A stretch of DNA of 64,000 bases from Candidatus Poribacteria bacterium (GTDB lineage Bacteria > Poribacteria > WGA-4E > WGA-3G): contig JAGWBV010000005.1 of assembly GCA_021295715.1 (NCBI GenBank), positions 2,534 to 66,533 on the forward strand, read 5' to 3'. The position numbers and the translations under genes are program-made. This document shows positions 5,903 to 61,822 of this stretch, one piece after another; the first letter of the stretch is position 1, and each line of letters opens with the position of its first letter. The notes under the pieces were generated by a model. The model was not told the DNA's origin. It was given only the letters and a program-made list of their open reading frames with translations, and did not search any database.

Positions 5903-6143
5903 AATGTGAGTTTGACATAAACATTTGGAAAATTATCTCTGGGAAATCGTTAGTTTTATCAAATTCGTTTCACCTTTGTGAGATTATGCACCCTTTCCAC
6001 CCTAAAATTGTGTCTTTAATAATCAGAGGGTTCTTTTTTAACTTCTCTTACGTCGAATTCACGTTGATAATATAAATGAGAGAAAAATCGGATGTAACAA
6101 CACCTTAAAGCGCGAATGCTTAACTACATAGGAGGAGCGTAAC

Positions 6144-6926
6144 ATGAAATCGCGCCGAATACCTTTCGTATGGATGGTATCGCTTGTCATACACGTCTGT
6201 CTCGCAGTCGTTGTAGGGTATGTCGCCATCTCATCTCAACCACAGAAAGCACAAGATACTATTGATCTGAGTTTCTTTATCCTTACACCACCCCAAGCAG
6301 CAAAAAGGGATGTTATTGAGAAACCAGCCGTCGTAACAACCCCTGTTCCAGATTTGAGAGTCGTTCCGCAAACTGAGGCGACGCAGCGTCGGACGACAGT
6401 CGCACGCGCGGCGAGATCGTCCTCGACTGCAGCACCTGTGGTGTCACTCACGGCGAGCGCGCCCGCTGCGCCAAGAGGACAGCAAATCAAAGTTGCGAGT
6501 GCGTCCCCTGTGATCCAGCATACTGCGCACCCGCTGTCAACAGACGCAAAACTCCCAACAACATCAGATGGATTACCCACCGCAGGCTTGCCCAGTGGCG
6601 GGGCAATTACGGATGGTATAGGCACAGGTATTGGTGACGGTTTAGGTAGCGGTACCGGACGTGGAACTTTTGGTTCAGGATCCGATCTTGGACAAGGACG
6701 GACGCAAAGCCGTGGCAGTCTGAACTCACTCGTAGCGGGGGCTGGTGCTGCAAATATCAACGCATCCCTGTCGAATGTCGAAAAGAATATGGTTCTCGGT
6801 AATGGTGTCCCACAACTTCCGAAGGGGAGTCCAGGTGCCATCATTCAAGGTCGCGGAACAGAGATTATTGGAAGACTCAATCTCGTTCGTCTCGATGATC
6901 CATTGCATCCGAACCTCGATATATGA
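6144..6926 (+). CDS. Membrane-anchored protein with a long Pro/Thr/Ala/Gly-rich linker; ends at a TGA that is in frame with the next ORF
   Basis: GGAGG lies before ATG 6144. One N-terminal TM helix, then low-complexity sequence. Stop TGA 6924-6926 is in the same frame as 7014-7721 with no intervening stop. Confidence 0.55.
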   Translation: MKSRRIPFVWMVSLVIHVCLAVVVGYVAISSQPQKAQDTIDLSFFILTPPQAAKRDVIEKPAVVTTPVPDLRVVPQTEATQRRTTVARAARSSSTAAPVVSLTASAPAAPRGQQIKVASASPVIQHTAHPLSTDAKLPTTSDGLPTAGLPSGGAITDGIGTGIGDGLGSGTGRGTFGSGSDLGQGRTQSRGSLNSLVAGAGAANINASLSNVEKNMVLGNGVPQLPKGSPGAIIQGRGTEIIGRLNLVRLDDPLHPNLDI

Positions 6927-7013
6927 GGCAGCGGCATCGGACATCTCCGATTCGGGGCAGGTCTGCCCTATTTAGTCAAGTCGCTGAATGCAGAAACAGG
7001 TATCGTAACCCAA

Positions 7014-7721
7014 ATGGTTGACGCCGTCCAAATTACGGATGCAGCGTTTCTTGAGTCACCGGTTATCTTTATGGAGCCGGTTCCCAAATCCTCAGTGCAA
7101 CTCCAGAACGGGTTGCTGGGTGGTGGCAATATATGGAATGTCAGTGGGGATCGCCCTTCTTTCGGTTATACCGATCGGGAGGCACAGCGAATTCGCGAAT
7201 ATGTCATCAATCGCGGTGGGTTTATCTATATGCCGACACACGGAAACACGGAATTGGCAATGCAACCTGCTCTGCGGATCTTGCGCCAAATTCTTCCTGA
7301 ATACCACCTCACGACGATTCCTCACGACCACGAGATTTACAACAGTTTCTATGAGTTGAGCGGGCCGCTCCGATTTCCTGTTCGGAAAATTGGGTCTACC
7401 GTTCTCCATCACGGTCCCTACCGTCAGTTACAAGGTGTCTTCATTGATGATCGGTTAGCTGTTCTTGTTGATACGGAAGCGATGATACATGTGATGGATG
7501 GTGCTGTTCAGAAGCCTTTCTTCGGTCACTATCAAGACCGGAATAGAATCTTAGATGAGTTCGCACCAGCTGCTGCACGACAACTCGTTAATATCGTCGT
7601 TTACGCGGTGACACACGGAAACATCTCGGATTACAGTAACTACATTCCGGCAAATGCTCTCGCCGATGGAGAGGGAGATGTTGCCCCGAAAAAGGCACCG
7701 AGTGCCGCCAGTCGACTGTAA
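7014..7721 (+). CDS. DUF4159-like domain protein, possibly the C-terminal part of a single 6144-7721 product
   Basis: REAQRIREYVINRGGFIYM and LPEYHLTTIPHDHEIY resemble the DUF4159 core (family recalled from memory). No obvious SD precedes ATG 7014. The frame is open back to 6927. Confidence 0.45.
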   Translation: MVDAVQITDAAFLESPVIFMEPVPKSSVQLQNGLLGGGNIWNVSGDRPSFGYTDREAQRIREYVINRGGFIYMPTHGNTELAMQPALRILRQILPEYHLTTIPHDHEIYNSFYELSGPLRFPVRKIGSTVLHHGPYRQLQGVFIDDRLAVLVDTEAMIHVMDGAVQKPFFGHYQDRNRILDEFAPAAARQLVNIVVYAVTHGNISDYSNYIPANALADGEGDVAPKKAPSAASRL

Positions 7722-8005
7722 GAATTCTCGTGCGAAGCCGCGCATAACTATCCATGAAGAATAAGCTGCGTCAGTCCTTTGACGTGGCTTTTTTTTGCCT
7801 CTTTGCATCATCTCCACAGACGAAAATATTGATTTTCGAGTTCTACCAGCGCGCTCGTTTGTCCTCTAATCCCGATTACATCAATATAGTGTTTTCCAAA
7901 GATTCCTATCGAGGAACCCACTCATCTTAACTTGAACCAATTTCGCTGGGAAACTTGGCAAATCCCACGAAAATAGGCGAGATGATGGCAAAATCGCGTT
8001 TCTAT

Positions 8006-8034
8006 TTGACAAATCGAGGGTAGATATGTATAAT
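8006..8034 (+). promoter_or_regulatory. Perfect-consensus sigma-70 promoter, TTGACA-17-TATAAT
   Basis: TTGACA at 8006-8011 and TATAAT at 8029-8034, upstream of the rhodanese gene. Confidence 0.55.
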
Positions 8035-8122
8035 ATAAACAAGAATCGTCCTTTTAAGGCACAGTTATATGCCCATAGGAATAGGCCTTAACAAGAATAC
8101 ACGAAGGAGACTTTATACAAAA

Positions 8123-8971
8123 ATGGCTGATTACGCAAATTCTGATGTTTTGGTAACGACGGAATGGGTCGCTGCACACGGTGGTGATGCAGGCATCCGA
8201 CTCCTTGAAGTCGATGTGGATACCTCAGCATACGGTGAAGGACATATCGCTGGGGCAGTCGGACTCAATTGGGAAACGCAATTGTGCGACCAAGTTCGAC
8301 GTGATATCCTCACGAGAGAACAGTTCGAGGCACTCTGCAATGACAGCGGTATCGCCAACGATACTACTGTTATTTTTTATGGAGATAACAATAACTGGTT
8401 CGCAACGTATGCCTTGTGGCAATTCCGCTATTACGGACACGATGAAAGTCTATTGAAAGTGATGAACGGTGGTCGTCAAAAATGGGTCGATGAAGGCAGA
8501 GAGCTTGTCACTGACGTTCCAGATCATTCGAGCACAGGATATCAGGCGAAATTCCCCGACGACAATGTTCGTGCTACAGCGGGTACGGTTCGCGAAACAT
8601 TAGGGCAAGGCGTTGTTAACCTTGTCGATGTCCGTTCGCCTGCTGAGTTCACTGGTGAAGTTATCGCACCTCCCGGTATGAGCGAGACAGCGCAACGCGG
8701 TGGACATATCCCCGACGCAGCGAATATCCCGTGGGCAACAGCAGTCGCTGAAGACGGCACCTTTAAGTCTCACGACGAACTCCAAGCCATCTACGGTGGT
8801 GCGGGTGTTGATGAGAGTAAGGAAACAATCGCTTATTGCCGTATTGGTGAACGCTCATCGCATACTTGGTTTGTGCTGAAATATCTACTCGGTTATGAAA
8901 AGGTCCGTAATTACGATGGCAGTTGGACAGAATGGGGCAATCTGGTCGGAGCCCCTATTGCACGCGATTAA
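8123..8971 (+). CDS. Thiosulfate/3-mercaptopyruvate sulfurtransferase (tandem rhodanese domains)
   Basis: MADYANSDVLVTTEWV N-terminus, GHIAGA, active-site loop YCRIGERSSH, DGSWTEWG. Confidence 0.85.
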   Translation: MADYANSDVLVTTEWVAAHGGDAGIRLLEVDVDTSAYGEGHIAGAVGLNWETQLCDQVRRDILTREQFEALCNDSGIANDTTVIFYGDNNNWFATYALWQFRYYGHDESLLKVMNGGRQKWVDEGRELVTDVPDHSSTGYQAKFPDDNVRATAGTVRETLGQGVVNLVDVRSPAEFTGEVIAPPGMSETAQRGGHIPDAANIPWATAVAEDGTFKSHDELQAIYGGAGVDESKETIAYCRIGERSSHTWFVLKYLLGYEKVRNYDGSWTEWGNLVGAPIARD

Positions 8972-9455: not shown

Positions 9456-10283
9456 ATGTACTACTTAACCCGACAAACGGCGTTTGAAGCATCACATTAC
9501 AACCGTATCCCTGAACTGAGCGATGCAGAGAACTTTGAGTTGTTTGGTGCCGCCGCAAATCCAAATAGCCACGGGCATAACTATGTGCTTGAGGTCATGG
9601 TGAAAGGCAGTGTAGATGTAGATGATGGTATGGTCATCAATCTGGTGACTTTGGACGTGTTGTTGAAGAGCGAAGTGCTTGCCAATTACGATCACAAACA
9701 TCTAAACCGTCAACATCCGGTATTCGCAAAGAACTCGCAATTACAACCGACGTGTGAGAACATCTCTATAGAGATTTGGCAGCGGCTTGATCCTTCTTTG
9801 CCGGAGGGAATGTTGCACAGGGTGCGCCTCTACGAAAGTGCGGCAAATTTTGCAGACTATTATGGGGAAGGACCTATGGTTTATCTTACGAAAGTCTACG
9901 ATTTTAGTGCCGCCCACCGTTTGCACAGCCATGCACTGAGTGATGAAGATAACCGGGATATTTTCGGAAAGTGCAATAATCCGGCTGGGCATGGACATAA
10001 CTACGTACTCGAAGTTACCGTAAAGGGAGACGTAGATGCGAGGACCGGATTGGTTGCTGGTTTGAATCTTCTTGACGAAGTCGTTCAAAAACAGGTTTAT
10101 GCGCGTTTCGACTATAAACACCTGAATCTCGATACTACTGAGTTTAAGGTGCTCAATCCGACGTCGGAGAACTTCGTCAAAGTGCTTTGGGACGTGTTAG
10201 AACCGAATTTGCGCCCAGTGGTTCTACACCGCCTTCGCTTGCGAGAGACACCCAAAAACCATTTCGACTACTACGGCGAGTAA
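9456..10283 (+). CDS. Tandem-domain 6-pyruvoyl-tetrahydropterin synthase / QueD-family (COG0720) protein
   Basis: Two T-fold halves. Half 1 has FGAAANPNSHGHNYVLEV and half 2 has FGKCNNPAGHGHNYVLEV. Both have YDHKHLN / FDYKHLN. Confidence 0.85.
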   Translation: MYYLTRQTAFEASHYNRIPELSDAENFELFGAAANPNSHGHNYVLEVMVKGSVDVDDGMVINLVTLDVLLKSEVLANYDHKHLNRQHPVFAKNSQLQPTCENISIEIWQRLDPSLPEGMLHRVRLYESAANFADYYGEGPMVYLTKVYDFSAAHRLHSHALSDEDNRDIFGKCNNPAGHGHNYVLEVTVKGDVDARTGLVAGLNLLDEVVQKQVYARFDYKHLNLDTTEFKVLNPTSENFVKVLWDVLEPNLRPVVLHRLRLRETPKNHFDYYGE

Positions 10284-10343
10284 GCCACCTTCTGCCCAGT
10301 AGGCATATATAAACACAGCCCATTGGAGGCATATTTTAACATA

Positions 10344-10922
10344 ATGGAGTTTAATCAGGCTAACGTTACCCCTGAGTTGGAAGGACTTTACACAAAAATC
10401 CTTCAAAGCTTAGGTGAAGATCCGAGTCGTCAAGGCTTAGTGAAAACACCATACCGTGCCGCGAAAGCGATGGAATTTTTGACGAGCGGTTATCATCAAA
10501 GCGTTGATGATATTCTGAATGGAGCCATCTTTGATGAGGATTATGACGAAATGGTGATTGTGAAAGAGATTGAGTTTTACAGTCTCTGTGAGCACCATAT
10601 CCTACCGTTTTGGGGTAAATGTCACGTTGGGTATCTCCCGCGGAAACAGATTGTGGGTTTGAGTAAGATCCCGCGCATTGTAGATATGTTTTCCCGTCGG
10701 TTGCAAGTTCAGGAGCGTCTCACGCGTGAGATTGCCGAATCACTCGAAACCGCCCTCGACCCCCGCGGTGTCGCTGTCGTGATGGAGGGACAACACCTGT
10801 GCATGATGGCACGCGGCGTTGAAAAGCAAGCACCGAAAATGACAACAAATGTCATGCGGGGGACGTTCCGTGAGGATAGTTCAACGCGCGCGGAGTTTCT
10901 GAGGTGTATTCAAGTATCCTAA
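10344..10922 (+). CDS. folE: GTP cyclohydrolase I
   Basis: [55 protein letters not shown]. Start is ATG 10344 or TTG 10323. Confidence 0.9.
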
Positions 10923-10961
10923 TATATTTCTCGGACTTTCTCATTTACTTCTCTTATTTTT

Positions 10962-11061
10962 TATCAAAACCGTAAGCCTGTAACGTAGTGGAGGGCGGCT
11001 TTTAGGAAAGGCGTGTGAAAATTTCAACCTACGTCAGGAACCCGCAAGGTATAATTAAAAA
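10962..11061 (+). repeat. Leader repeat copy 5 (degenerate), ending at ATG 11062
   Basis: ATCAAAACCGTAAGCCTGTAACGTAGTGGAGGGCGG...CCCGCAAGGTATAATTAAAAA aligns with the core of copies 3 and 4, with substitutions. Confidence 0.55.
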
Positions 11062-11802
11062 ATGGCAGAAATAGGAAGACTCGACGGTAAAGTCGTGGTG
11101 ATTACTGGAGCGTCAAAGGGGATTGGTAAGGCAACCGCTTTCGCTTTCGCAGCAGCAGGTGCGAAGGTTGTGCTCGCTGCCCGAACACGTGAAACACTCG
11201 AACAGGTCGCAGTGGAACTTAGAGAAGTAGCGGTTGCTAACCCCGATTCCATACTCGCTGTTCCAACAGACGTTACCAACGTCGATGCTGTGAAGCAACT
11301 TATCCACCGGACATTAGATGTTTACCAACACGTGGATATCCTAATCAACAATGCGGGGATCGGTCATTTCGGACCCGTGATCGATTTCGAGTCTGACGAC
11401 TGGGATGCGGTACTCAATTCCAACTTAAAGGCTGTTTATCTCTGCGCAAAGTACGCGCTTCCGTCCATGTTGGAACGAGGCAGTGGACAGATTGTTAATG
11501 TGCTTTCAATCGCCGCGAAAGTTGCGTTTGAAGCTTCAGGTGCGTATTGTGCCGCGAAAGCAGGGGCGTTAGCACTCACAAAAGTTTTAGCCAGTGAAGT
11601 CCGCGAACAAAATATTCGAGTTACCGCTGTTTTACCGGGATCAGTACATACTCCATTTTGGGACGGCGTTCCAGAACACCCAGACTTTGAACAGATGTTA
11701 ACACCGGAACATGTCGCTGATACAATTGCTTCCATTTGTCAGCAACCGCCGGGTATGGTGACTGAAGAGATCGTTGTAATGCCGCCCCTCGGAATTCTCT
11801 AA
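11062..11802 (+). CDS. Classical short-chain dehydrogenase/reductase; candidate pteridine/sepiapterin reductase by context only
   Basis: TGASKGIG, NNAG and catalytic YCAAK motifs. Confidence 0.8.
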   Translation: MAEIGRLDGKVVVITGASKGIGKATAFAFAAAGAKVVLAARTRETLEQVAVELREVAVANPDSILAVPTDVTNVDAVKQLIHRTLDVYQHVDILINNAGIGHFGPVIDFESDDWDAVLNSNLKAVYLCAKYALPSMLERGSGQIVNVLSIAAKVAFEASGAYCAAKAGALALTKVLASEVREQNIRVTAVLPGSVHTPFWDGVPEHPDFEQMLTPEHVADTIASICQQPPGMVTEEIVVMPPLGIL

Positions 11803-13160
11803 GCAGTAAAACGTCCGAGTCGTCGCCGAATGCGAATCTTGCGGATAGCACGTGCGTCAGCATCTATAACAGTGATAATAGAATCGCCCAAGTCAAGTTC
11901 AGTGTCAATTTCTGGAATGGTACCGGTCCGATCCAGAATATAACCAGCAACCGTTTCATAATCACCTTCGGGGATTGCGAGTCCGTAGTGTTCTTCGAGC
12001 AGGTCTACTTCAGTTCTCGCATCACATTCAAGAATCTGAGGTGTAATCAGGCGGATGAATTCGGGGGCATCACGTTCATCGGCAAATTCACCGACAATTT
12101 CTTCAACAAGGTCTTCGATGGTGACGAGGCCAACCGTGCCGCCATATTCATCAACAGCAAATACCATTGTGTGCCGGGTATGTTGAATCTCTTTGAGGAG
12201 CGCGTTAATGTTTTTAGATTCGGGGACGTGCAGTGCTGATCGGATGAAGGGTTGAATCGTGTTAGGCAGGCTATCGGATTTTTCGTTGGGATTTGGATCT
12301 CCCTCTGGTTCGGCATCATTGTAAATAACGTCTAAGAGGTTAACGATTCCAACGATATTGTAAATTTGTTCTTCGTAGACCGGAATCCTTGAAAACCCGG
12401 AGTCAGCAGCGACTTGCAAAAAATCTTCGCATTTTGTATTCTTCTCAATTGCAACGATGTCGACAAGCGGCACCATGACCTGTGCAACCGTCCGATTTTG
12501 TAGATTGAGCAGACTATGAATCATACGCCGTTGATTGGTGTGTAGGTTGCCGGACCGTTCCCCCATCGTTGCGAGAAGTCGGAGTTCTTCACGCTGGGCA
12601 TCGGGACTCGGTGTGCTCGAACCCCTATCTACGAGTTTGACGATAAATTGCGTCAAAGTTTGCACAAGGTAGATCAGCGGAGCTAAAACCATTTCAGAAA
12701 GGCGTAGGAGATAGGCATAGCGCAGTGCCAAGGTATCTGCCTTGACACGAAAGATAGTTTTCGGTAAAATTTCTCCAAAGATGAGGAGTAGGGTCGTTAT
12801 ACCAGCCGTTGCAATGAGTCCCTGCAGACTTACTGCCAAGTTCGGGAGTCCTCGGACAACAAGACCTTCACCGAGTTGTGCGATAAGCACATTTGCGAGA
12901 TTTGTCCCGACCAGTGTCAGCGCGAGCATTCTCTGGGGCGATTCTACCAAACGATGAACGATGCTCGCTCTGGCATTCTCGGATTCGACGAGCTGATTAA
13001 TTCGGAGTTTGTTCACCGAGACAAGTGCTGTTTCCGAACCAGAGTAAAAAGCTGACAACACAAGGCAGACCAGAACTGCCAGCACAAGTGAACTTAACAC
13101 AGTTATCTGTCCTGTGCTACTCGCACCGATTAAAAAGATCGATAATAGAAGAATTTTCAA
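11799..13160 (-). CDS. CNNM/CorC-HlyC family transporter (DUF21, CBS pair, CorC_HlyC)
   Basis: FYSGSETAL in TM1, GEILPK, CBS region, C-terminal GDYETVAGYILD. Confidence 0.85.
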   Translation of the reverse strand: MKILLLSIFLIGASSTGQITVLSSLVLAVLVCLVLSAFYSGSETALVSVNKLRINQLVESENARASIVHRLVESPQRMLALTLVGTNLANVLIAQLGEGLVVRGLPNLAVSLQGLIATAGITTLLLIFGEILPKTIFRVKADTLALRYAYLLRLSEMVLAPLIYLVQTLTQFIVKLVDRGSSTPSPDAQREELRLLATMGERSGNLHTNQRRMIHSLLNLQNRTVAQVMVPLVDIVAIEKNTKCEDFLQVAADSGFSRIPVYEEQIYNIVGIVNLLDVIYNDAEPEGDPNPNEKSDSLPNTIQPFIRSALHVPESKNINALLKEIQHTRHTMVFAVDEYGGTVGLVTIEDLVEEIVGEFADERDAPEFIRLITPQILECDARTEVDLLEEHYGLAIPEGDYETVAGYILDRTGTIPEIDTELDLGDSIITVIDADARAIRKIRIRRRLGRFTA

Positions 13161-13187
13161 TTGCTTTGTATCGGGTGGCCGGTATTT

Positions 13188-14531
13188 TTACACTTCAGTT
13201 TTGCTGTCAGTAACCGGCATTTTGATGAATAAACTTGTGATAGCATTGCCTTCTGTAGCAGTAATTTCAAATTCGATACCGTTTTCGTCAATGTAGGATT
13301 CGCCAACGGAGGGAATGCGACCAAAGAGTCCGAGGACATAGCCACCAATGGTGTCTACATCGTCTTCACTGAGTTTTAATTCAAATTGCTGATTGAGTTC
13401 GCGGATGCTCATACGCCCAGAAGTTTCAAGTAACAACGGGGCTTCAGAGTGTTTGACAAGATCAGGTGGAGAGTCGTCTCTATCGTGTTCATCAACAATG
13501 TCTCCGACGACTTGTTCGACAATATCTTCGGTGGTAACAATTCCTGAAACGCCTCCATATTCATCGCGGAGGATCGCCATTTTGGTTTTTTCGCGTGTGA
13601 GTTGTAGTAACAATGCCCCGATCTTACGGGTCTCAAGGACAAAGATGGGATCGCGAATGAGTGAAGCATTAGGCGAGGCTTCAGAAATCTGATCCCGCTT
13701 TTCGAGGAAAGCATCAAGTGTAAGTGAATTCACAGGGGCGTGTCGCCAGCGTGCTAAATCTTTGACGTAGAAGATGCCACAAATATTATCGATTTGTTCT
13801 TGATAGACAGGAATGCGTGAAAACCCGTATTGCTTTGCTTGCTTTAATGTTTCTTGAATAGTGTTTGATGTCGGCACTGCCACGACTTCAGTCCGTGGCA
13901 CCATAATCTCTTTTGCCTCGATGTCACGTAATTGGAGAATATTGCTCACAATTTTCCGTTCATCGGGCGGGAGTGCTTCTTCGTGATAGGTATCGACAAT
14001 GTCTCTAAAATCTGTTGCTGTGAGGTGTTCTATAGGGGATGGGTGTCCACCGAATACTGGAACAAGAAAGTCGATGATTCTGCGTAACAAACCGCGTAAC
14101 GGCGAAATGATAATGGAAAATATCCATAGCGGTGGGGCGGCGACTTTTGAAAAGAATTCCGCATGCTTAATGGCGTAAGATTTTGGAGTCATCTCACCGA
14201 AAATAAGCATGAGGACGACGCTGAGGACTGTAGCTGTCGCAAACTGGATCACTTCTGTATATTGCGGAAGCACCTGTTTAACAAGCCAGAGCATCAGAAT
14301 CGCGAAGGAGACATTGACAAGATTATTACCAAATAGGACGGTGATAAACAGTCTGCGTGGGTTGTCGACAAAACTGACAATTGCAGACGCGCTGCCCTTT
14401 TCAAGGCGGAGCCTTTCAATTTGAACGCGAGTCAGTGCGCATAGAGCCGTCTCGGAGCCAGAAAAAAAGCCTGAGAGGACGAGTAACCCTGCTAAACCGA
14501 TCAGATAGGGGAGTAGTGGAACAACTTCCAT
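13188..14531 (-). CDS. CNNM/CorC-HlyC family transporter (paralog)
   Basis: FFSGSETAL, GEMTPK, CBS pair, DVDTIGGYVLG. Lies in tandem with 11799-13160. Confidence 0.85.
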   Translation of the reverse strand: MEVVPLLPYLIGLAGLLVLSGFFSGSETALCALTRVQIERLRLEKGSASAIVSFVDNPRRLFITVLFGNNLVNVSFAILMLWLVKQVLPQYTEVIQFATATVLSVVLMLIFGEMTPKSYAIKHAEFFSKVAAPPLWIFSIIISPLRGLLRRIIDFLVPVFGGHPSPIEHLTATDFRDIVDTYHEEALPPDERKIVSNILQLRDIEAKEIMVPRTEVVAVPTSNTIQETLKQAKQYGFSRIPVYQEQIDNICGIFYVKDLARWRHAPVNSLTLDAFLEKRDQISEASPNASLIRDPIFVLETRKIGALLLQLTREKTKMAILRDEYGGVSGIVTTEDIVEQVVGDIVDEHDRDDSPPDLVKHSEAPLLLETSGRMSIRELNQQFELKLSEDDVDTIGGYVLGLFGRIPSVGESYIDENGIEFEITATEGNAITSLFIKMPVTDSKTEV

Positions 14532-14639
14532 TCTTTTTTAGAAAACAATTTTTCGACGAAATTGCATGTCGAGAATTGCTATTAAGTGCACTGAATCAGC
14601 GATAATTTGTAATCTGGGCATTTGTTTAATGATAACATA

Positions 14640-14669
14640 TTGACAAAAAAATCGCAACAAAAATATTAT
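14640..14669 (+). promoter_or_regulatory. Sigma-70-like promoter, TTGACA-18-TATTAT
   Basis: TTGACA at 14640-14645 and TATTAT at 14664-14669, upstream of eda. Confidence 0.4.
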
Positions 14670-14749
14670 TTTTTGTAGATAGTATTTGCAAGGCAATATT
14701 AAGAAATACCTTTAACCTCAAACGAATAGGACTAATTTTGAGGACATCT

Positions 14750-15409
14750 ATGACAAAATTAGAACAGATGCAACAGATTGAAGCGTGTGGTATTGTGGCT
14801 ATCATTCGCGCCAATAGCGCAGATGAATTGATTGAAGCAGCGGCGGCGATTCATGCCGGTGGTGTGAACGTAATTGAAGTGACGATGACAACACCGAACG
14901 CGTTACAAGTAATTAACGACGTTTCATCCACGTATGGAGATACCGTTCTCGTTGGTGCTGGATCGGTATTAGACGCAGAAACAGCACGCGCTGTAATGTT
15001 ATCAGGTGCTGACTTTGTTGTCAGTCCTGTTACGAAACTGGATGTAATTGAGATTTGTAACCGCTACGGTAAAGTGGTGATTCCCGGGGCATTTACCCCA
15101 ACCGAAATCTTGATGGCATGGGAAACAGGAGCAGACTATGTGAAGGTATTCCCATCAAGCGGTGTTGGTGCTGATTACATAAAAGACGTGAAGGCTCCGC
15201 TGCCGCAAATCCCGTTGGTTCCGACAGGTGGCATCAATGCGGAAAACGCGGCTGATTTTATCACGGCTGGTGCAACCGCTTTGGGAGTTGGAAGTGCGCT
15301 CGTTAACAACCAACTCATTGCGGCAGGTGAATTCGCAATCCTTACGGAGAGAGCTAAGAAGCTGGTGAAGGAGGTACGACGCGCCCGTTCAGGTTCTAAT
15401 GCAGTTTAG
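14750..15409 (+). CDS. eda: KDPG / 4-hydroxy-2-oxoglutarate aldolase
   Basis: GIVAIIR, VIEVTMTTP, VKVFP, PTGGI. Confidence 0.85.
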   Translation: MTKLEQMQQIEACGIVAIIRANSADELIEAAAAIHAGGVNVIEVTMTTPNALQVINDVSSTYGDTVLVGAGSVLDAETARAVMLSGADFVVSPVTKLDVIEICNRYGKVVIPGAFTPTEILMAWETGADYVKVFPSSGVGADYIKDVKAPLPQIPLVPTGGINAENAADFITAGATALGVGSALVNNQLIAAGEFAILTERAKKLVKEVRRARSGSNAV

Positions 15410-15515
15410 ATTTGTTCAAAATGTATTTTTATGTTGACAATTAATCTTAATTCTGTTAATTTTAATATAAGATTTTAATGCAGAACCTATGCTCTGTCCC
15501 CTTTGAGTGCCAATT

Positions 15516-17450
15516 ATGCAAATTGATCAACTCATCTTAGGTAAATATAGATTGCTTGAGTTTCTCAATTCAGGGGGATTCTCTTCGGTTTTTCGCGCCC
15601 GCGAAGAAATGACAAATCGAGAGGTTGCAATTAAAGCCTTAGCAAAAACTGCCTACCCTGCCAGCAGAATGAAATTTTTGCTGACTGAATTTCAAGCGAT
15701 GTCGAAAATTTGGGGGCATCCAAATATTGTCTCAATTCATACCGTTGAACCCGGCGAAGATGACTATGTCGCGTGGATAGTGATGGAGTATGTTGAAGGT
15801 AAAAGCCTTCACGATCTCATGCAAGAGGGTGCCCTCAGTCTAACAGATACTCTCAATATCGGCTTAGATATTTGTCGAGGGCTAAAAGCAGCGCATGCAC
15901 ACAAAATTATGCATCGCGATATCAAACCGCAGAATATTTTACTCACAACCGGGAAAGAGGCAAAAGTCGCCGACTTTAGTATCGCTCGCATATTTGGCGA
16001 AACCACCGAATTCGCTGAGACCATGGCTGGCACCCGACGCTACATGGCACCCGAACAACACTACGGAGCTTACGACTATCGCGCGGATCTTTATTCCACA
16101 GCACTCATCTTGTATCAAGCCGTAACCGGACGATTCCCTTTTTCAGGTGAGAACAAGGAGATTGATAAGAAGAAAGCCGCCGGAGAAATAGAAGAAATCC
16201 ATAGATGTCCCGAAGTACTCCGCAATTTCTTACAAAAAGCACTTCACCGACAACTCTCAGAACGCCATCAGAGTGCCGATGAGATGTACGAAGAACTGGA
16301 TCGGATTCGCCAAGATGAGTATGTTAAACAAGCATCCCAACTTATTGATGCGAGCGTTAATTCCAATAATCCGAGATTAGCGGAAGCACTTGAGCGATAC
16401 CGTAAGACGTTTCGCCTCTCGCTCGCAGATGCTGAACGGATGAATCAAAACCTCTTTTTTCAGCGACGGCAGAATGAGGAAAATGGTAAACGCGAGAAGA
16501 TCGCAACCCAAGTTCAAAGACACTATACGCTCGCCACACGTTACATCGAAAGCCAAGACTTTCGAAGCGTCCTTTCAGAACTCCACAAAGCAAGTCGTCT
16601 CTGCATTGACGAACAGGATTTAACCGAAACTATAGACGATGTGTTTGACGAGCTCAGTGCCGCGAACATGGTCTTCCCATCAAGCCCGACTGTTGAGGAA
16701 ATTGTTGTACTCATTCAGAAATTACCAGAGAATGAAAATGCTGTCCTTCGTACATGGTTTGAGCATCAAATACCGGCACCGGAAGAAACAACAGATATAA
16801 CGCCCATACGCCCTCGTGTTAGAGCAACCGGCAGTTATCGACTCGTGATGGAGGAAGCTTCACCGGAATTCCTACTCGATCAGGTTCACAGCGATATCCA
16901 ATACCCACACGAGATAGAAGCATTTCGTATCTTCCGGCAGATCCAAATCTATGAACAACAGGGGCGAACCCGGCAGTGCCACGTGCTTTATAGGAAACTC
17001 GGTAGATTCTATCAAAAACAGGCGAACAACTTTGTCAAGAAAGACGATTTAGAACTCGTTGCCAACTGTTATACGCGCGCTCGTTTTGCTTACACGGTCG
17101 CAGAGAAGCAGCGTCTCGCCAGAAAAAATGCCAAAAAAGGTGGGATTTATTACACGCGCTTGGCACGTCAATTTGAACTACAGCGTTCATGGGAAGAAGC
17201 AGGGAAATCTTATATTCTTGCTGCTTACAATCATGGCTACGCGAATTTGCCGTCACTCGTTGAAGAATGCCATCGTATGGCAACCGTCTGTTATTTTAAC
17301 GCTGCTGAAAGTGCGCATCTCAATGATGATTTACAAACCGCTTATGACTATTACACGTTAATCTTAGCAGTCGGTGAAAAAATGTCTACACCGACAAAAA
17401 TGGTAAGCGAAGCACAGAAATTGATGTCGGAAATCCCGGTCGAAAGTTAA
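15516..17450 (+). CDS. Hanks-type Ser/Thr protein kinase with a long C-terminal helical (TPR-like) region
   Basis: GGFSSVF, VAIKAL, HRDIKPQNILL, ADFSIAR, MAPEQ. About 380 aa of helical C-terminus. Confidence 0.85.
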   Translation: MQIDQLILGKYRLLEFLNSGGFSSVFRAREEMTNREVAIKALAKTAYPASRMKFLLTEFQAMSKIWGHPNIVSIHTVEPGEDDYVAWIVMEYVEGKSLHDLMQEGALSLTDTLNIGLDICRGLKAAHAHKIMHRDIKPQNILLTTGKEAKVADFSIARIFGETTEFAETMAGTRRYMAPEQHYGAYDYRADLYSTALILYQAVTGRFPFSGENKEIDKKKAAGEIEEIHRCPEVLRNFLQKALHRQLSERHQSADEMYEELDRIRQDEYVKQASQLIDASVNSNNPRLAEALERYRKTFRLSLADAERMNQNLFFQRRQNEENGKREKIATQVQRHYTLATRYIESQDFRSVLSELHKASRLCIDEQDLTETIDDVFDELSAANMVFPSSPTVEEIVVLIQKLPENENAVLRTWFEHQIPAPEETTDITPIRPRVRATGSYRLVMEEASPEFLLDQVHSDIQYPHEIEAFRIFRQIQIYEQQGRTRQCHVLYRKLGRFYQKQANNFVKKDDLELVANCYTRARFAYTVAEKQRLARKNAKKGGIYYTRLARQFELQRSWEEAGKSYILAAYNHGYANLPSLVEECHRMATVCYFNAAESAHLNDDLQTAYDYYTLILAVGEKMSTPTKMVSEAQKLMSEIPVES

Positions 17451-45381: not shown

Positions 45382-46374
45382 TTAGGCATCGCCGCCTTCA
45401 CTAACGATCAACTGGTTCACAATCTCGGTGGAAACCTGGGAGATCTCGACCATGTGCCTGTTGACCCAACTATCAAAGAGTTGGAAGAAAATCAAGCAAG
45501 GGATAGCAACTGTCAAACCAGCAGCAGTTGTGAGAAGTGCCTGTGAGATACCACCGGCGAGCTGCTGCGGGTCACCGGTACCTTCAAGTGCGATTGTAGT
45601 AAACGCACTAATCATACCTGTAACTGTTCCGAGCAAACCAAACAACGGAGACACGACTGCAACGGTACCGAGGACCGGCAGATTTCTTTCGAGTTCAGGA
45701 ATTTCAAGGAGACTTGCTTCCTCAATAGCTTCCTGAATTTCCTCTTTGGTAATGTCGCGCTCCTCAATTTGGGCTTGGCTGTATCGTAGCAATCCTGCTT
45801 TAAGAACGTTAGCGAGCGGTCCACCGGCTTCTTCGCAAGTCGAAACGGCTTCCATAATGTTCTCTTTCCGCAGTGAGTCAGCGATAGTGGCGATAAACTG
45901 TTCGGTTCCAATGCGTGAACGGCTCCGAACGAAGGTGAAAAGTCTTTCGATAATGAAAGTCAACGCCGTGATGGAACAGAGGGCGAGGGGCCAGAAGACG
46001 AATCCAAACTTTTGGAAGAAAGTAACGATATTGTCTTTTTTCGTCATCTTGAGTGGGACAAAGTGGTCACCGCCATTAACGACTGTAACGGGTTTACCAA
46101 GTCGATCACCGTATCCTTCTCTGTAGATACTGATGAGGTAACGACCTGCGGGAACTCCCGAGCGCTCATAGTCGCCGTTAGCATCCGTCATCGCTGCAAA
46201 TTCTTCGCCACTTTGGGCAACAATCTTGACTTCAACGCCTTCAATTGGGCTCTGTGCTGTGGTTGTATCAACAATTTGGCCCCGGACGGTTCCGCCGCTA
46301 TCCTGTGCGAAGACAACACCGGCAGACATACCGATACAGGCGACCAACATTAACACCAAACTTAAACGAGTCAT
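45382..46374 (-). CDS. exbB: MotA/TolQ/ExbB proton channel with an N-terminal signal peptide and a carboxypeptidase-regulatory-like (CarboxypepD_reg) domain
   Basis: N-terminus GTVRGQIVD...GVEVKIVA...TDANGDYERSGVPAGRYLISIYREGY. C-terminal ExbB core LGTVAVVSPLFGLLGTVTGMI...ALLTTAAGLTVAIP. Confidence 0.8.
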   Translation of the reverse strand: MTRLSLVLMLVACIGMSAGVVFAQDSGGTVRGQIVDTTTAQSPIEGVEVKIVAQSGEEFAAMTDANGDYERSGVPAGRYLISIYREGYGDRLGKPVTVVNGGDHFVPLKMTKKDNIVTFFQKFGFVFWPLALCSITALTFIIERLFTFVRSRSRIGTEQFIATIADSLRKENIMEAVSTCEEAGGPLANVLKAGLLRYSQAQIEERDITKEEIQEAIEEASLLEIPELERNLPVLGTVAVVSPLFGLLGTVTGMISAFTTIALEGTGDPQQLAGGISQALLTTAAGLTVAIPCLIFFQLFDSWVNRHMVEISQVSTEIVNQLIVSEGGDA

Positions 46375-53556: not shown

Positions 53557-55170
53557 TTAACGTCTCCGTTTTGTCCGTTCCGTTGTCCGACTCCGATTAT
53601 CATCGTCATCACTTTTACTGCTGGAACTACTACGCGATGAACTCGAACTTGATGTTGTCGGGCGCGTCCGAGACTTTGTAGAAGAAGAGGAACGGTTTAT
53701 GCTTGAACGTGAGCGCGTTGAACTCGAACTTGATGTTGAACTCGAACGACTTATACGAGACCTCTCCGTTGAGCGGCTTATACTTGAACGTGAACGCGTC
53801 GAATTTGAACTTGATGTTGAACTCCTATACCTTGAACCCGAATCATTACTGCTACCTGACGAAAACGACCGGTTTGAAGAAGGCGCCGAACGTCTATAAA
53901 GTGGTGTAGTCCGTTGTCTTTCTACGGTACTTCTATAACTGTTCACGCTCTGTGCTGTTCCATTCGGGTAACGTCGCTGCTTGCTAAGTGCGTTTCCAGA
54001 ATATGTGCTTCTTCTTACACTATTCCGCTGGAGGCTTGATGCAGAAGCAAGCGAGCGCTGTTTCTCCATAATAATTGACTGGCGCGCAATTCGTTCTGTT
54101 GTCGCTGGGGTCTGTCTTCGGTGGTTTTCAAGCGTGGTGCGGATGTTTCTCCTAACTGTTGTCCGGTCGGCTTGACGACTGTTCGCAGTCAATCGGCTGC
54201 GGCTGTACTGCCGACGCGCTGTTTCATGCTGAGTACTCCACCGATTCAAACGCGTTCGCCGCTGATAGACCTTCGGTGTGCCACGATAGTGACCTTGGTA
54301 AGAACCGTAATACGGCGAATAACCGCGGTAGTAGGCACCTGAATAATACCTACGGTAACGTCCGAGATACCCACCATAATACGAACGGATTGAGAGATAG
54401 TGGTGATCGTAGATTGGATAACTCCATCGGAGGTAGTAGTCGTAGTCCGTCGCGTAATAGATGGGACCATCGTAAAAATAAAGGTAGGTGTAATTATGCC
54501 ACGGACGCCAACGGTAAGTTGGTGTATACCGCTGAATTACTTTAACCTTCGGTTGTCTCCGATATGTAGATACCTCAAGATGTTCTACGTCAATCTGTTC
54601 GCCGCCCTCTGCGACGATATGGAGTTCCATCCATCCATTTTTGACATGACCGACTGCGGGGATCTTAATGAGTTCAGAACGATTTTTTGCTCGCAGCACG
54701 AAGGTGTCCCCGTAGCGTGTCTCTTTAGCATTTTCGTCATGGTAGCCACGACGTGTCGCCTCGCGTTGGGTATTACGAATCCAAACGCGTCCCGCGATGG
54801 GTTCTTCGTAGTCTTCAATCTCCAGGTGATGGGGTTCCCCTCGATACCTCACCAAAACTTCGATGGACTGTGTCCCTGTTGGAATTTCAAAGAGATATAC
54901 CGCGCTGGCAATCGCAAATTCGTAGTTATTTGCGTTCTCGGCAGTATTCGCCCAAGCGGTAAGCCGAACGCCATCTTCAAAGCGCGGACTGGCGGTAATT
55001 GTCGCATTCCCACGTTCTATCCATTCATCGACATCATTGGCAACGCGATGTTCTCGACTCAATCGATCCGCGTAATAATCGTAATCCGCAGCGGCAGGCA
55101 TTAGCAACCCAGCAATTGCAAAACAACTGATGAGGCATACTGCACTTAAAATAGAAATCTGGGTCTTCAT
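53557..55170 (-). CDS. Secreted or membrane-anchored protein with a structured N-domain, a Tyr/Arg-rich middle and a Ser/Arg-rich basic tail
   Basis: ATG 55170 lies 7 nt after AGGAGGAGG. Signal/TM is MKTQISILSAVCLISCFAIAG. YYGGYLGRYRRYYSGAYYRGYSPYYGSYQGHYRG, and a tail of S/R/T repeats ending RTKRRR. Confidence 0.6.
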   Translation of the reverse strand: MKTQISILSAVCLISCFAIAGLLMPAAADYDYYADRLSREHRVANDVDEWIERGNATITASPRFEDGVRLTAWANTAENANNYEFAIASAVYLFEIPTGTQSIEVLVRYRGEPHHLEIEDYEEPIAGRVWIRNTQREATRRGYHDENAKETRYGDTFVLRAKNRSELIKIPAVGHVKNGWMELHIVAEGGEQIDVEHLEVSTYRRQPKVKVIQRYTPTYRWRPWHNYTYLYFYDGPIYYATDYDYYLRWSYPIYDHHYLSIRSYYGGYLGRYRRYYSGAYYRGYSPYYGSYQGHYRGTPKVYQRRTRLNRWSTQHETARRQYSRSRLTANSRQADRTTVRRNIRTTLENHRRQTPATTERIARQSIIMEKQRSLASASSLQRNSVRRSTYSGNALSKQRRYPNGTAQSVNSYRSTVERQRTTPLYRRSAPSSNRSFSSGSSNDSGSRYRSSTSSSNSTRSRSSISRSTERSRISRSSSTSSSSSTRSRSSINRSSSSTKSRTRPTTSSSSSSRSSSSSKSDDDDNRSRTTERTKRRR

Positions 55171-55419
55171 GAGAATCCTCCTCCTATGTTCATGTCCTTC
55201 ATTTGGTATTGTCAATAGGCTTCTACCTACAGAGTGCGGTGACGCGTGAGTATCTAAAGTTAAACCTTTTTAATCAAAGTGCGATAAAAATGATACAATT
55301 TTCCTTAAGAATTGTCAAGAGTTAATCAACGTCATTCAATGGTTCAGGCACCCTAATCACGATTCACCCTTTAAGAACGAACGAGCATATTGCGAAAACG
55401 AAATGGTTTTCCCAATTCT

Positions 55420-60556: not shown

Positions 60557-61822
60557 CTACGGCTCCGCGACAACGCCCATAAACAGGATAGTCTTTGTCT
60601 CGTTATCGTGAATCGCAAAGAAAAAGGGTCGGTCTACAATAAAAGGAATTGGTGGTGGCGATACCGCACTTGTCTCAATAACCCCAACACTGGTCACCGC
60701 CGCAGCTTCAGTTCCTTCTTCATTGACCTCGACGAAGGTTTTATGAATCACTTCTCCGATATACAAATTTTGACCCGAAATCTCTAAGGGTGCCATACGG
60801 CTGAAATCTGCAAGTGCTGGGTCGAACGCTATATCCATACCGAGGACTTTCAGCGTGTTGTTAAGGGTCTTTCTATATTCCAACTTAAACTTGGGCATGA
60901 CCAGGGACACGTCTTGTGTGCGAAACTGCGGCATCCAATTTTCCCAGTTTTCGGCGTTCAAATTCTCTAAAAAGATGTTGAGGTCGGATTCAGGGTCCGG
61001 GAGGAAAATATACATACGCATTTGCCCATCGCCATAAGCGAGGCTAATCGCTTGAAATTCCTCTCCCTTGTAGTATGGATACCAATGATTTTGGGTCATC
61101 ATTGGCACCTGCTTTTCATCGCCACTTGAGAGATAGAAGGTATCATCTCGTGTCCTCAATGGGTTGAATTCTCTTTGCCACGTACCCTTGAAGTAGATAG
61201 CGTTGATAAGAAATAATACTTTCGATGGGTCGATCTCATCGTCAACGATTTTTTTAATCTTACCGTTTGTATTAGTATCTACCCACTGATTAATTGTTTG
61301 TGAAGCACTTGGGGCATCAAAATCCAGTGTTGAAATCTCCGCTCCGAAAAATTGGGTGTTTCGCTGCAAGAAATCTGGTTTGAACGAGAATCCTTGACGC
61401 GCCCAAAGCGAGTTCGCAATGGCGAGTGTTACTTTCGGATCTGATGTCAAAAGTATTTGGCGCAATCCGGCATAGCCTCTGTTAATCGCTTCGGAGCCTA
61501 ACCCTTGCAATTGCAACGTGTTGGTCATTGTCTGCTCGGTTTCACCGGATGCGCCGTTCAACGTCATTGCTAAGGCAGTAGAAATACTAAGCGGTGAGAT
61601 AAAAATATTCTTGTCCTGCTCAGTTTTACGGATTTCATCGAACAGGTTAAAACCAAATTTAGTATTCGCCGTGACGACACTGCTATCAATGGGACCAACT
61701 TCAAGTTTAACTTCCTTCTTGTCAAACATATCCGCACGAAACTCGTCACATCCGGCGAATAGTAGCAAAACCGAGCAGAAGAGTCCAAGAAAAGTTATTG
61801 TGGCTGTCTGTTTTTTATCCAT
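60557..61822 (-). CDS. Serpin (serine protease inhibitor), lipoprotein
   Basis: Lipobox LFAGC. NIFISPLSISTALAMT, FKGTWQ, hinge and RCL EEGTEAAAVTSV, PFFFAI. Confidence 0.88.
   Translation of the reverse strand: MDKKQTATITFLGLFCSVLLLFAGCDEFRADMFDKKEVKLEVGPIDSSVVTANTKFGFNLFDEIRKTEQDKNIFISPLSISTALAMTLNGASGETEQTMTNTLQLQGLGSEAINRGYAGLRQILLTSDPKVTLAIANSLWARQGFSFKPDFLQRNTQFFGAEISTLDFDAPSASQTINQWVDTNTNGKIKKIVDDEIDPSKVLFLINAIYFKGTWQREFNPLRTRDDTFYLSSGDEKQVPMMTQNHWYPYYKGEEFQAISLAYGDGQMRMYIFLPDPESDLNIFLENLNAENWENWMPQFRTQDVSLVMPKFKLEYRKTLNNTLKVLGMDIAFDPALADFSRMAPLEISGQNLYIGEVIHKTFVEVNEEGTEAAAVTSVGVIETSAVSPPPIPFIVDRPFFFAIHDNETKTILFMGVVAEP

Follow-up and report, generated by a model that had tools for sequence, protein, structure and literature searches.

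The 64,000-nucleotide window analyzed here comes from a Candidatus Poribacteria bacterium (GenBank assembly GCA_021295715.1, contig JAGWBV010000005.1, positions 2,534 to 66,533 of the forward strand), and all coordinates below are positions within it unless a locus number precedes them. On its plus strand, a coding sequence of 525 residues plus stop (6144-7721) runs from ATG 6144 to TAA 7719-7721, as judged from its translation and its homologues. The sole interruption of this frame is a TGA at 6924-6926 (codon 261), a putative selenocysteine (Sec) codon within the motif HP-x3-D-I-U-G-S-G-I-G. The TGA is followed by 29 sense codons (GSGIGHLRFGAGLPYLVKSLNAETGIVTQ) and by an ATG at 7014-7016, which specifies the internal Met-291 of the read-through product and has been mistaken in public annotation for the start of a separate C-terminal protein. 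A first-pass annotation of this DNA had described two open reading frames (ORFs), 6144-6926 and 7014-7721, lying in one frame with only the TGA and 29 sense codons between them, and had anticipated a joint product of roughly 525 residues; translation of the read-through frame bears out both statements.

The entire unit is served by one Shine-Dalgarno site, the AGGAGG at 6130-6135 read from the sequence upstream of ATG 6144, and by one plus-strand terminator-like site, a hairpin followed by a T-run at 7763-7790, beyond the stop codon. The consensus scan retrieved no plus-strand terminator-like sites within 6144-7721. As previously remarked for this DNA, inspection of the sequence upstream of ATG 7014 revealed no GGAGG-like site, and the ATG column itself is Leu in 51% of the Sec-type copies described below. 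Conservation of the protein with varying synonymous sites was seen over codons +1 to +45 after the TGA. Because amino acids are kept while third positions vary over codons +1 to +29, the stretch between the TGA and ATG 7014 appears to be translated. The evidence from sequence comparison indicates that 6144-7721 is one gene and not two, and the public start of the C-terminal half at ATG 7014 is a misannotation.

Codon 261 was compared across 70 gene copies, comprising the window gene and 69 loci from ∼57 Poribacteria genomes, at 44 to 91% protein identity. Complete Poribacteria chromosomes with the gene include OX639992.1, OZ246979.1, and OY761015.1. The 69 loci were retrieved by a scan of one-genome-per-species contigs, all labeled Poribacteria except for two labeled "uncultured bacterium." The codon is TGA in 63/70 copies and Cys (TGT or TGC) in the remaining 7/70; without the window gene, the corresponding counts are 62 and 7. 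All orthologues of the window gene (38/38; 56 to 91% identity) carry the TGA, which is also found in the majority of copies from a second paralogue group (44 to 48% identity). Every cleanly delimited full-length copy contains exactly one TGA, with no further in-frame stop or frameshift; the copies not cleanly delimited are those of loci L060, where the tblastn match ran past the gene end, and L032, which is partial. Since the window DNA is only ∼91% identical to the nearest locus in the segments compared, the window represents an independent genome.

Additional TGA-bearing paralogues lie in the flanks of two loci (L037:15135 and L055:12662), and two metagenome contigs supply further cases. In a Logan contig (L071:3-1355), the same TGA is accompanied by both of the hairpins described below (AAUCGGAGGCAUCCGAUU and GGGGCAGGUCUGCCCU), and the surrounding protein is more divergent. 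In a divergent homologue from an ENA metagenome (L070:2155-3738), TGA occupies the same column (HPSLYG-*-GQKLIG), and the differing downstream sequence folds into no more than a weak hairpin (-5.7 kcal/mol). This homologue may either have a different Sec insertion sequence (SECIS) or be a decaying copy.

A search with the read-through product retrieved 35 database proteins at 43 to 51% identity. All of these (35/35) are single proteins, which speaks against homologous loci encoding two separate genes. With the exception of a truncated 370-residue fragment covering 57% of the query, the homologues are full length (34/35), either 529 to 541 residues long or 720 to 744 residues long with an N-terminal extracytoplasmic function (ECF) sigma domain, and they cover 98 to 100% of the query (94% in two instances). 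The column of the TGA is Cys in 18/18 aligned database homologues, in the context HP-x3-[DG]-[IV]-C-G-S-G. Alignment of homologues at this column, which the first-pass annotation had proposed as a check, thus yields Cys in the direct homologues and TGA in the large majority of Poribacteria copies. The same annotation had also considered a TGG (Trp) ancestor for this codon. Trp is found here only in distant canonical DUF4159 relatives, which have DWW in this region, and not in the direct homologues.

The TGA falls within a divergent DUF4159 domain with a class I glutamine amidotransferase-like fold (6834-7664, plus strand). It had been suggested from the sequence that this domain straddles the stop, and the gapless homologue alignment over the TGA and the match of the fold to structure 4i66 agree with that suggestion; the Pfam match is confined to residues 339 to 488. 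Specifically, PF13709 was retrieved at 65.8 bits (cutoff, 25.9) over profile positions 62 to 201 only, and a profile of the family matched 4i66 with an E value of 8e-11. An AlphaFold2 model built from 82 sequences reached a predicted local distance difference test score (pLDDT) of 76.7 and a predicted template modeling score of 0.81. With this model, 4i66 was the best Foldseek match (E value of 1.3e-9; TM-score of 0.74 normalized to the target), and the other matches were weak ones to glutamine amidotransferases. An earlier AlphaFold2 model from nine sequences was discarded (pLDDT of 40).

Directly downstream of the TGA are two hairpins, both of which had been noticed in the first-pass annotation and both of which are present in the minimum-free-energy fold. 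Hairpin H1 (AUCGGA-CAUC-UCCGAU; 6936-6951, plus strand) is conserved and lies between the UGA and hairpin H2, the core of the candidate SECIS (6953-6970, plus strand; paired segment, 6954-6969), in which a stem of 6 to 7 bp (GGGGCA/UGCCCU) carries the loop GGUC at 6960-6963. The fold of the window copy taken as a single sequence is unexceptional (z = -1.35), and the decamer that H2 shares with Escherichia coli fdhF occurs at approximately the frequency expected by chance. The significance of the RNA element lies entirely in the comparison of sequences across genomes. Over 39 distinct sequences, the two helices are paired in 95.7% of cells, compared with 33 to 52% when the pairing partners were slid, and variation within them is limited to A-U/G-U and G-C/G-U exchanges. 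An outer stem of the minimum-free-energy fold (6930-6935/6980-6985) was discounted as not conserved, since two of its six pairs form in just 60% and 80% of the sequences.

The most direct measure of constraint came from degenerate codons in 61 Sec-type genes. Only 5/109 conserved four- or sixfold-degenerate columns are monomorphic, namely, +8 CGA, +10 GGG, +11 GCA, +12 GGT, and +13 CTG; conserved degenerate columns outside codons +8 to +14 have a mean codon entropy of 1.49 bits. The Arg codon CGA in the 3' arm of H1 is invariant (61/61), as is the Ile codon ATC in its 5' arm (41/41). The longest invariant run in the gene is the 12-nucleotide GGGGCAGGTCTG in H2, with the runner-up reaching 5 nucleotides. 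Similarly, the best 36-nucleotide window begins at codon +4, with an identity of 0.94 (0.69 gene-wide) and a third-position identity of 0.92 (0.54 gene-wide), and the constrained block coincides exactly with H1 and H2. The GGUC loop is unchanged in all Sec-type copies (63/63), and no copy has an insertion or deletion between the UGA and the loop. In 3/7 Cys-type copies, CTG has become TTG, converting GGUC to GGUU, which is the relaxation expected after loss of the UGA. By this comparison, the hairpin region appears to be under selection at the nucleotide level.

H2 also agrees with every element of the bacterial SECIS model given in a 2026 review (PMC13188914), which calls for an apical loop of 3 to 9 nucleotides, an upper stem of 4 to 16 bp, a G as the first or second loop nucleotide (with G or U usually next), a distance of 16 to 37 nucleotides from the UGA to the apical loop, and a folding energy of -7.5 kcal/mol or lower. 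The H2 loop is 4 nucleotides long and begins with G-G, its stem is 6 to 7 bp, and the folding energy is -8.6 to -9.4 kcal/mol for H2 by itself and -15.2 kcal/mol for H1 and H2 together. The loop begins 33 nucleotides after the A of the UGA (6927-6959), one fewer than the 34 counted in the first-pass annotation, which had likewise placed it within the accepted range.

The nearest known counterpart is the SECIS of E. coli fdhF. In both genes, an in-frame UGA aligns with a Cys of homologues and a stem-loop lies inside the coding sequence downstream. The apical SelB-binding sequence (GCAGGUCUGC) with its GGUC loop is matched exactly and in equal codon phase. The first-pass annotation had pointed to this match, and the fdhF sequence proved correct: the 46-mer following the fdhF TGA, which contains GCAGGTCTGC in the same codon phase as H2 (GCA GGT CTG), was found at 95 to 100% identity in 5419/5426 complete E. 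coli genomes. The two elements differ in that the UGA-to-loop distance is 18 nucleotides in fdhF and 33 nucleotides here, that an extra conserved hairpin, H1, fills the gap and leaves 9 + 2 = 11 nucleotides unpaired, and that the stem shows no evident bulged U; the Poribacteria protein is also unrelated to formate dehydrogenase. In the E. coli system, the hairpin bound by SelB has its base ∼11 nucleotides after the UGA. For H2, this distance is 26 to 27 nucleotides, and the fdhF distance is reached only if the 16 nucleotides of H1 are omitted. By analogy, H2 would be fdhF-like at its apex without being the same element, and H1 may act as a spacer that restores an effective distance of ∼11 nucleotides for SelB.

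By the same analogy with E. coli, we infer that insertion at the UGA is SelB dependent. With a ribosome positioned at the UGA, H2 would display the G-G-U-C apical loop on its G+C-rich stem 33 nucleotides downstream; its apex is the sequence bound by E. coli SelB in fdhF mRNA. SelB-GTP-Sec-tRNASec would then be recruited at H2, and Sec would be inserted in place of termination. Under scarce selenium, a truncated anchor of 260 residues would be made instead.

We take as established the Sec/Cys pair, the conservation of the TGA, the single frame, the nucleotide constraint on the hairpins, and the fold; decoding of the UGA at 6924-6926 as Sec is very probable. The first-pass annotation had listed three explanations, with a selenoprotein or other recoding event placed first, followed by a nonsense mutation and an assembly error. 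The Cys column, the presence of TGA in dozens of species, and the invariant SECIS hairpin favor the first. A pseudogene, in which a TGY-to-TGA or TGG-to-TGA mutation interrupted a formerly intact gene, is exceedingly improbable. The TGA is indeed one substitution from the Cys codons of the homologues, and a TGA in place of the Trp of relatives does seem to have disrupted one sigma-fused paralogue (L053:11884). Nevertheless, the TGA at codon 261 is shared by most copies at 44 to 91% identity, including every orthologue, in genes that lack other stops or frameshifts where cleanly delimited, that conserve amino acids while varying synonymous sites on both sides of the TGA, and that carry an RNA element under nucleotide-level selection directly behind it. 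An error of assembly or sequencing, for which only the prior plausibility in a single metagenome-assembled sequence speaks, deserves just as little credence, given that the TGA recurs in independent assemblies from different projects (complete long-read chromosomes, contigs of short-read metagenome-assembled genomes, and Logan and ENA contigs). Because the same TGA is conserved across the phylum, we consider both of these explanations excluded.

The remaining alternatives accept the TGA as genuine and differ in what it does. In gene calls and in GenBank, the halves appear as separate entries, in keeping with two genes, one for a 260-residue membrane protein and one for a 235-residue DUF4159 protein starting at ATG 7014; some termination at the UGA is also to be expected for any selenoprotein gene. 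This arrangement is very unlikely, as ATG 7014 lacks a Shine-Dalgarno site and is often replaced by Leu, the 29 codons in between show the evolution of coding sequence, each Cys-type homologue is a single protein, the fold extends across the junction, and the C-terminal half by itself would have neither signal nor anchor for export. Quite unlikely, too, is recoding of the UGA to something other than Sec, whether by Cys insertion of the tRNA-ReC/SelC* type or by near-cognate read-through with Trp or Cys. Cys evidently works at this position in seven copies, and tRNA-ReC decodes UGA as Cys with a downstream SECIS in several phyla (PMC13582414). That tRNA is found mainly in genomes with UXXU motifs (PMC13582414), however, and no tRNA-ReC is known in Poribacteria. 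Canonical SelA, SelB, and SelD are recorded in the phylum; moreover, maintaining a UGA and a SECIS would be costly just for Cys, since TGY suffices. A lineage-specific genetic code that reads TGA as sense (Trp or Gly) has nothing in its favor and can be given a negligible probability. Among the other long ORFs of the window, 10/53 end in TGA, where read-through adds only 3 to 43 codons, and each cleanly delimited full-length copy of the gene contains exactly one in-frame TGA.

Several observations weigh against Sec insertion at this UGA. The 33-nucleotide spacing is near the far limit of the accepted range and 15 nucleotides beyond that of fdhF. No compensatory double substitutions occur in H1 or H2 among the 39 distinct sequences; the RNA argument rests on the invariance of synonymous sites because such double changes are absent, and the invariance of the hairpins partly overlaps that of the amino acids RFGAGL. 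Rfam returned no match to a SECIS or any other family at gathering or permissive thresholds. The loop containing the Sec has low confidence in the AlphaFold2 model, which supports no structural statement on an active site. Finally, a Pfam scan of 30 ORFs, including every ORF in the window whose length would suit SelA, SelB, or SelD, retrieved none of the three, and ARAGORN detected no tRNA in the 64-kb window or in 60 of the loci (L001 to L060).

Support for Sec machinery in Poribacteria is available from the literature, although it is indirect. SelA, SelB, and SelD are listed for three Poribacteria genomes (Ca. Poribacteria WGA-3G, bin 70, and bin 44) in Table S4 of Slaby et al. (2017), and Sec-type hydrogenases of group 4 are reported from the phylum in a 2026 study. 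When 1.4 Mb of Poribacteria loci were searched for GGUC hairpins and in-frame TGA junctions, no other selenoprotein genes emerged; the search yielded only paralogues of the DUF4159 selenoprotein family, same-frame neighbor genes, and antisense shadow frames.

The full-length product would consist of a short basic cytoplasmic N terminus, one transmembrane helix, a low-complexity linker of ∼200 residues, and the C-terminal DUF4159-like domain. The anchor helix (6159-6230, plus strand; residues ∼6 to 29, IPFVWMVSLVIHVCLAVVVGYVAI) follows the basic MKSRR and contains an S-x3-H motif; in the homologue alignment, S13, H17, L20, and A21 are nearly invariant. Conservation of S13-x3-H17 and the proline-rich linkers of relatives recall the anchor of TonB, a resemblance that we assume to be no more than a lead. 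The read-through protein has no match to a Pfam TonB family, and its C-terminal domain is DUF4159. Because the fused paralogues carry a cytoplasmic sigma domain before the helix, a periplasmic location is predicted for the C-terminal domain.

Likeness to DUF4159 (PF13709; 4i66 is Hoch_4089 of Haliangium ochraceum) is evident from the above-threshold Pfam match, from the fold, and from an architecture of anchor, linker, and domain shared with hundreds of canonical relatives. These canonical membrane-anchored relatives comprise >880 proteins, and the same Poribacteria genomes encode many of them. The Sec-type subfamily differs from them in its motifs. The canonical DWW, TGHD, FDDCG, and DYMC are replaced, with MEP, THGN, and M-x-HV-x-DG found at three of these positions, so that the conserved Cys and His motifs (TGHD, FDDCG, and DYMC) are lost. 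Relative to the canonical proteins, the Sec or Cys lies within an insertion of ∼10 residues (DPLHPxxDI-U-GSGIGxxRFGAG) that is specific to the Sec-type subfamily. As a side observation, several canonical relatives (P0247, P0259, P0297, and P0092) have a domain resembling the DNA polymerase III beta subunit (PF00712) at the N terminus, before the helix, an unusual fusion.

One catalogued selenoprotein family is also built on a glutamine amidotransferase-type fold. In that family, Sec is found in GxUxG, which is reminiscent of the nucleophile-elbow GxCxG of the fold; in the proteins described here, the equivalent position is THGN (residues 364 to 367), and the Sec is placed in the inserted N-terminal loop. 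Since Sec/Cys pairs usually mark redox-active, nucleophilic, or metal-binding residues, the Sec may, as a guess by analogy, play such a role in this domain.

The paralogues of 720 to 744 residues place sigma-70 regions 2 and 4 before the same helix, linker, and domain. Most of these sigma-fused proteins (L060:10001-12315, L049, L050, L053, L057, L059, and L066) have Cys at the position in question; that of L060 carries TGA and, judged by its sequence, would be a selenoprotein fused to a sigma factor. Sigma-fused selenoproteins are listed neither in the 2026 catalogue nor in the literature searched. The window gene resembles ECF sigma/transmembrane sensor systems insofar as these paralogues join sigma regions to the same helix and domain. 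It differs from ECF sigma/anti-sigma systems in that only ∼5 of its residues are cytoplasmic and it lacks both a sigma and an anti-sigma domain. Neither domain was found in the neighbor genes scanned; sigma regions occur only in the fused paralogues of other genomes. A more speculative reading, which we consider doubtful, is that the Sec loop forms the sensing or catalytic center of a periplasmic redox or metal sensor family that is wired to an ECF sigma factor in the fusions and that the SECIS is a two-hairpin composite with H1 as its spacer.

Two further observations concern the paralogues. In L053:11884, a TGA separates the sigma domain from the membrane helix, at a site occupied by Trp in relatives (FWKDWETSIL). 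Unlike the conserved Sec codon, this TGA resembles a true nonsense mutation or a gene fission. At the single locus examined for a partner of the second paralogue group, L037:10001-17820, a two-gene cassette is present twice in tandem, and in each a Sec- or Cys-type DUF4159-like protein precedes a beta-propeller of ∼555 residues (CarboxypepD_reg/PD40, TolB-like). The DUF4159-like gene is a Cys copy at 10001-11620 of this locus and a TGA copy at 14337-15956.

In public records, each half of the Sec-type protein has its own entry (for the C-terminal half, for example, MCY4570674.1, "DUF4159 domain-containing protein"), and the C-terminal half belongs to a 139-member cluster. NCBIfam, which includes many selenoprotein-specific models, returned no match to the read-through protein. 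DUF4159/PF13709 is absent from the 2026 selenoproteome review and catalogue and from the deep-Sep supplements; in the literature searched, it occurs only in the Pfam paper and in no selenoprotein paper. Because the records keep the halves apart, NCBIfam has no match, and the selenoprotein papers and catalogue do not mention it, we rate this gene as representing a putative new selenoprotein family of sponge-associated Poribacteria that would employ a known bacterial recoding mechanism. Such a family would have a domain of unknown function as its scaffold and would mark a likely critical residue of a divergent DUF4159 subfamily. It would also expose a systematic annotation error, with hundreds of entries that could be merged. 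The presence of one to several copies per Poribacteria genome suggests a selenium-dependent function at the cell envelope.

Downstream of the gene, orthologous loci share the order rhodanese, 6-pyruvoyl-tetrahydropterin synthase, GTP cyclohydrolase I, and short-chain dehydrogenase. The two-domain rhodanese gene (8069-8971) adjoins the putative selenoprotein gene in nearly all syntenic orthologous loci, and its product is 85 to 98% identical across loci, a level above that of the selenoprotein. Because the rhodanese gene has its own perfect sigma-70 promoter (TTGACA-17-TATAAT; 8006-8034) and is separated from the putative selenoprotein gene by a terminator-like hairpin, cotranscription is unlikely. 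Rhodaneses can handle sulfur or selenium, so a functional link between the two proteins may exist.

Other genes of the window were noted in passing. At 9456-14531, the pterin-type set (a double-domain 6-pyruvoyl-tetrahydropterin synthase, GTP cyclohydrolase I, and the short-chain dehydrogenase) adjoins two CNNM/CBS/CorC transporter genes that lie in tandem on the other strand. The minus strand carries a full-length serpin gene (60557-61822; E value of 8e-122) and a 552-residue ORF (53557-55215) with no Pfam match at an E value of ≤1e-5; serpins are mostly known from eukaryotes. A proton-channel protein of the MotA/TolQ/ExbB family is encoded at 45382-46374 (minus strand). It has an N-terminal CarboxypepD_reg domain, which is also present in the beta-propeller partner of the paralogue cassettes.

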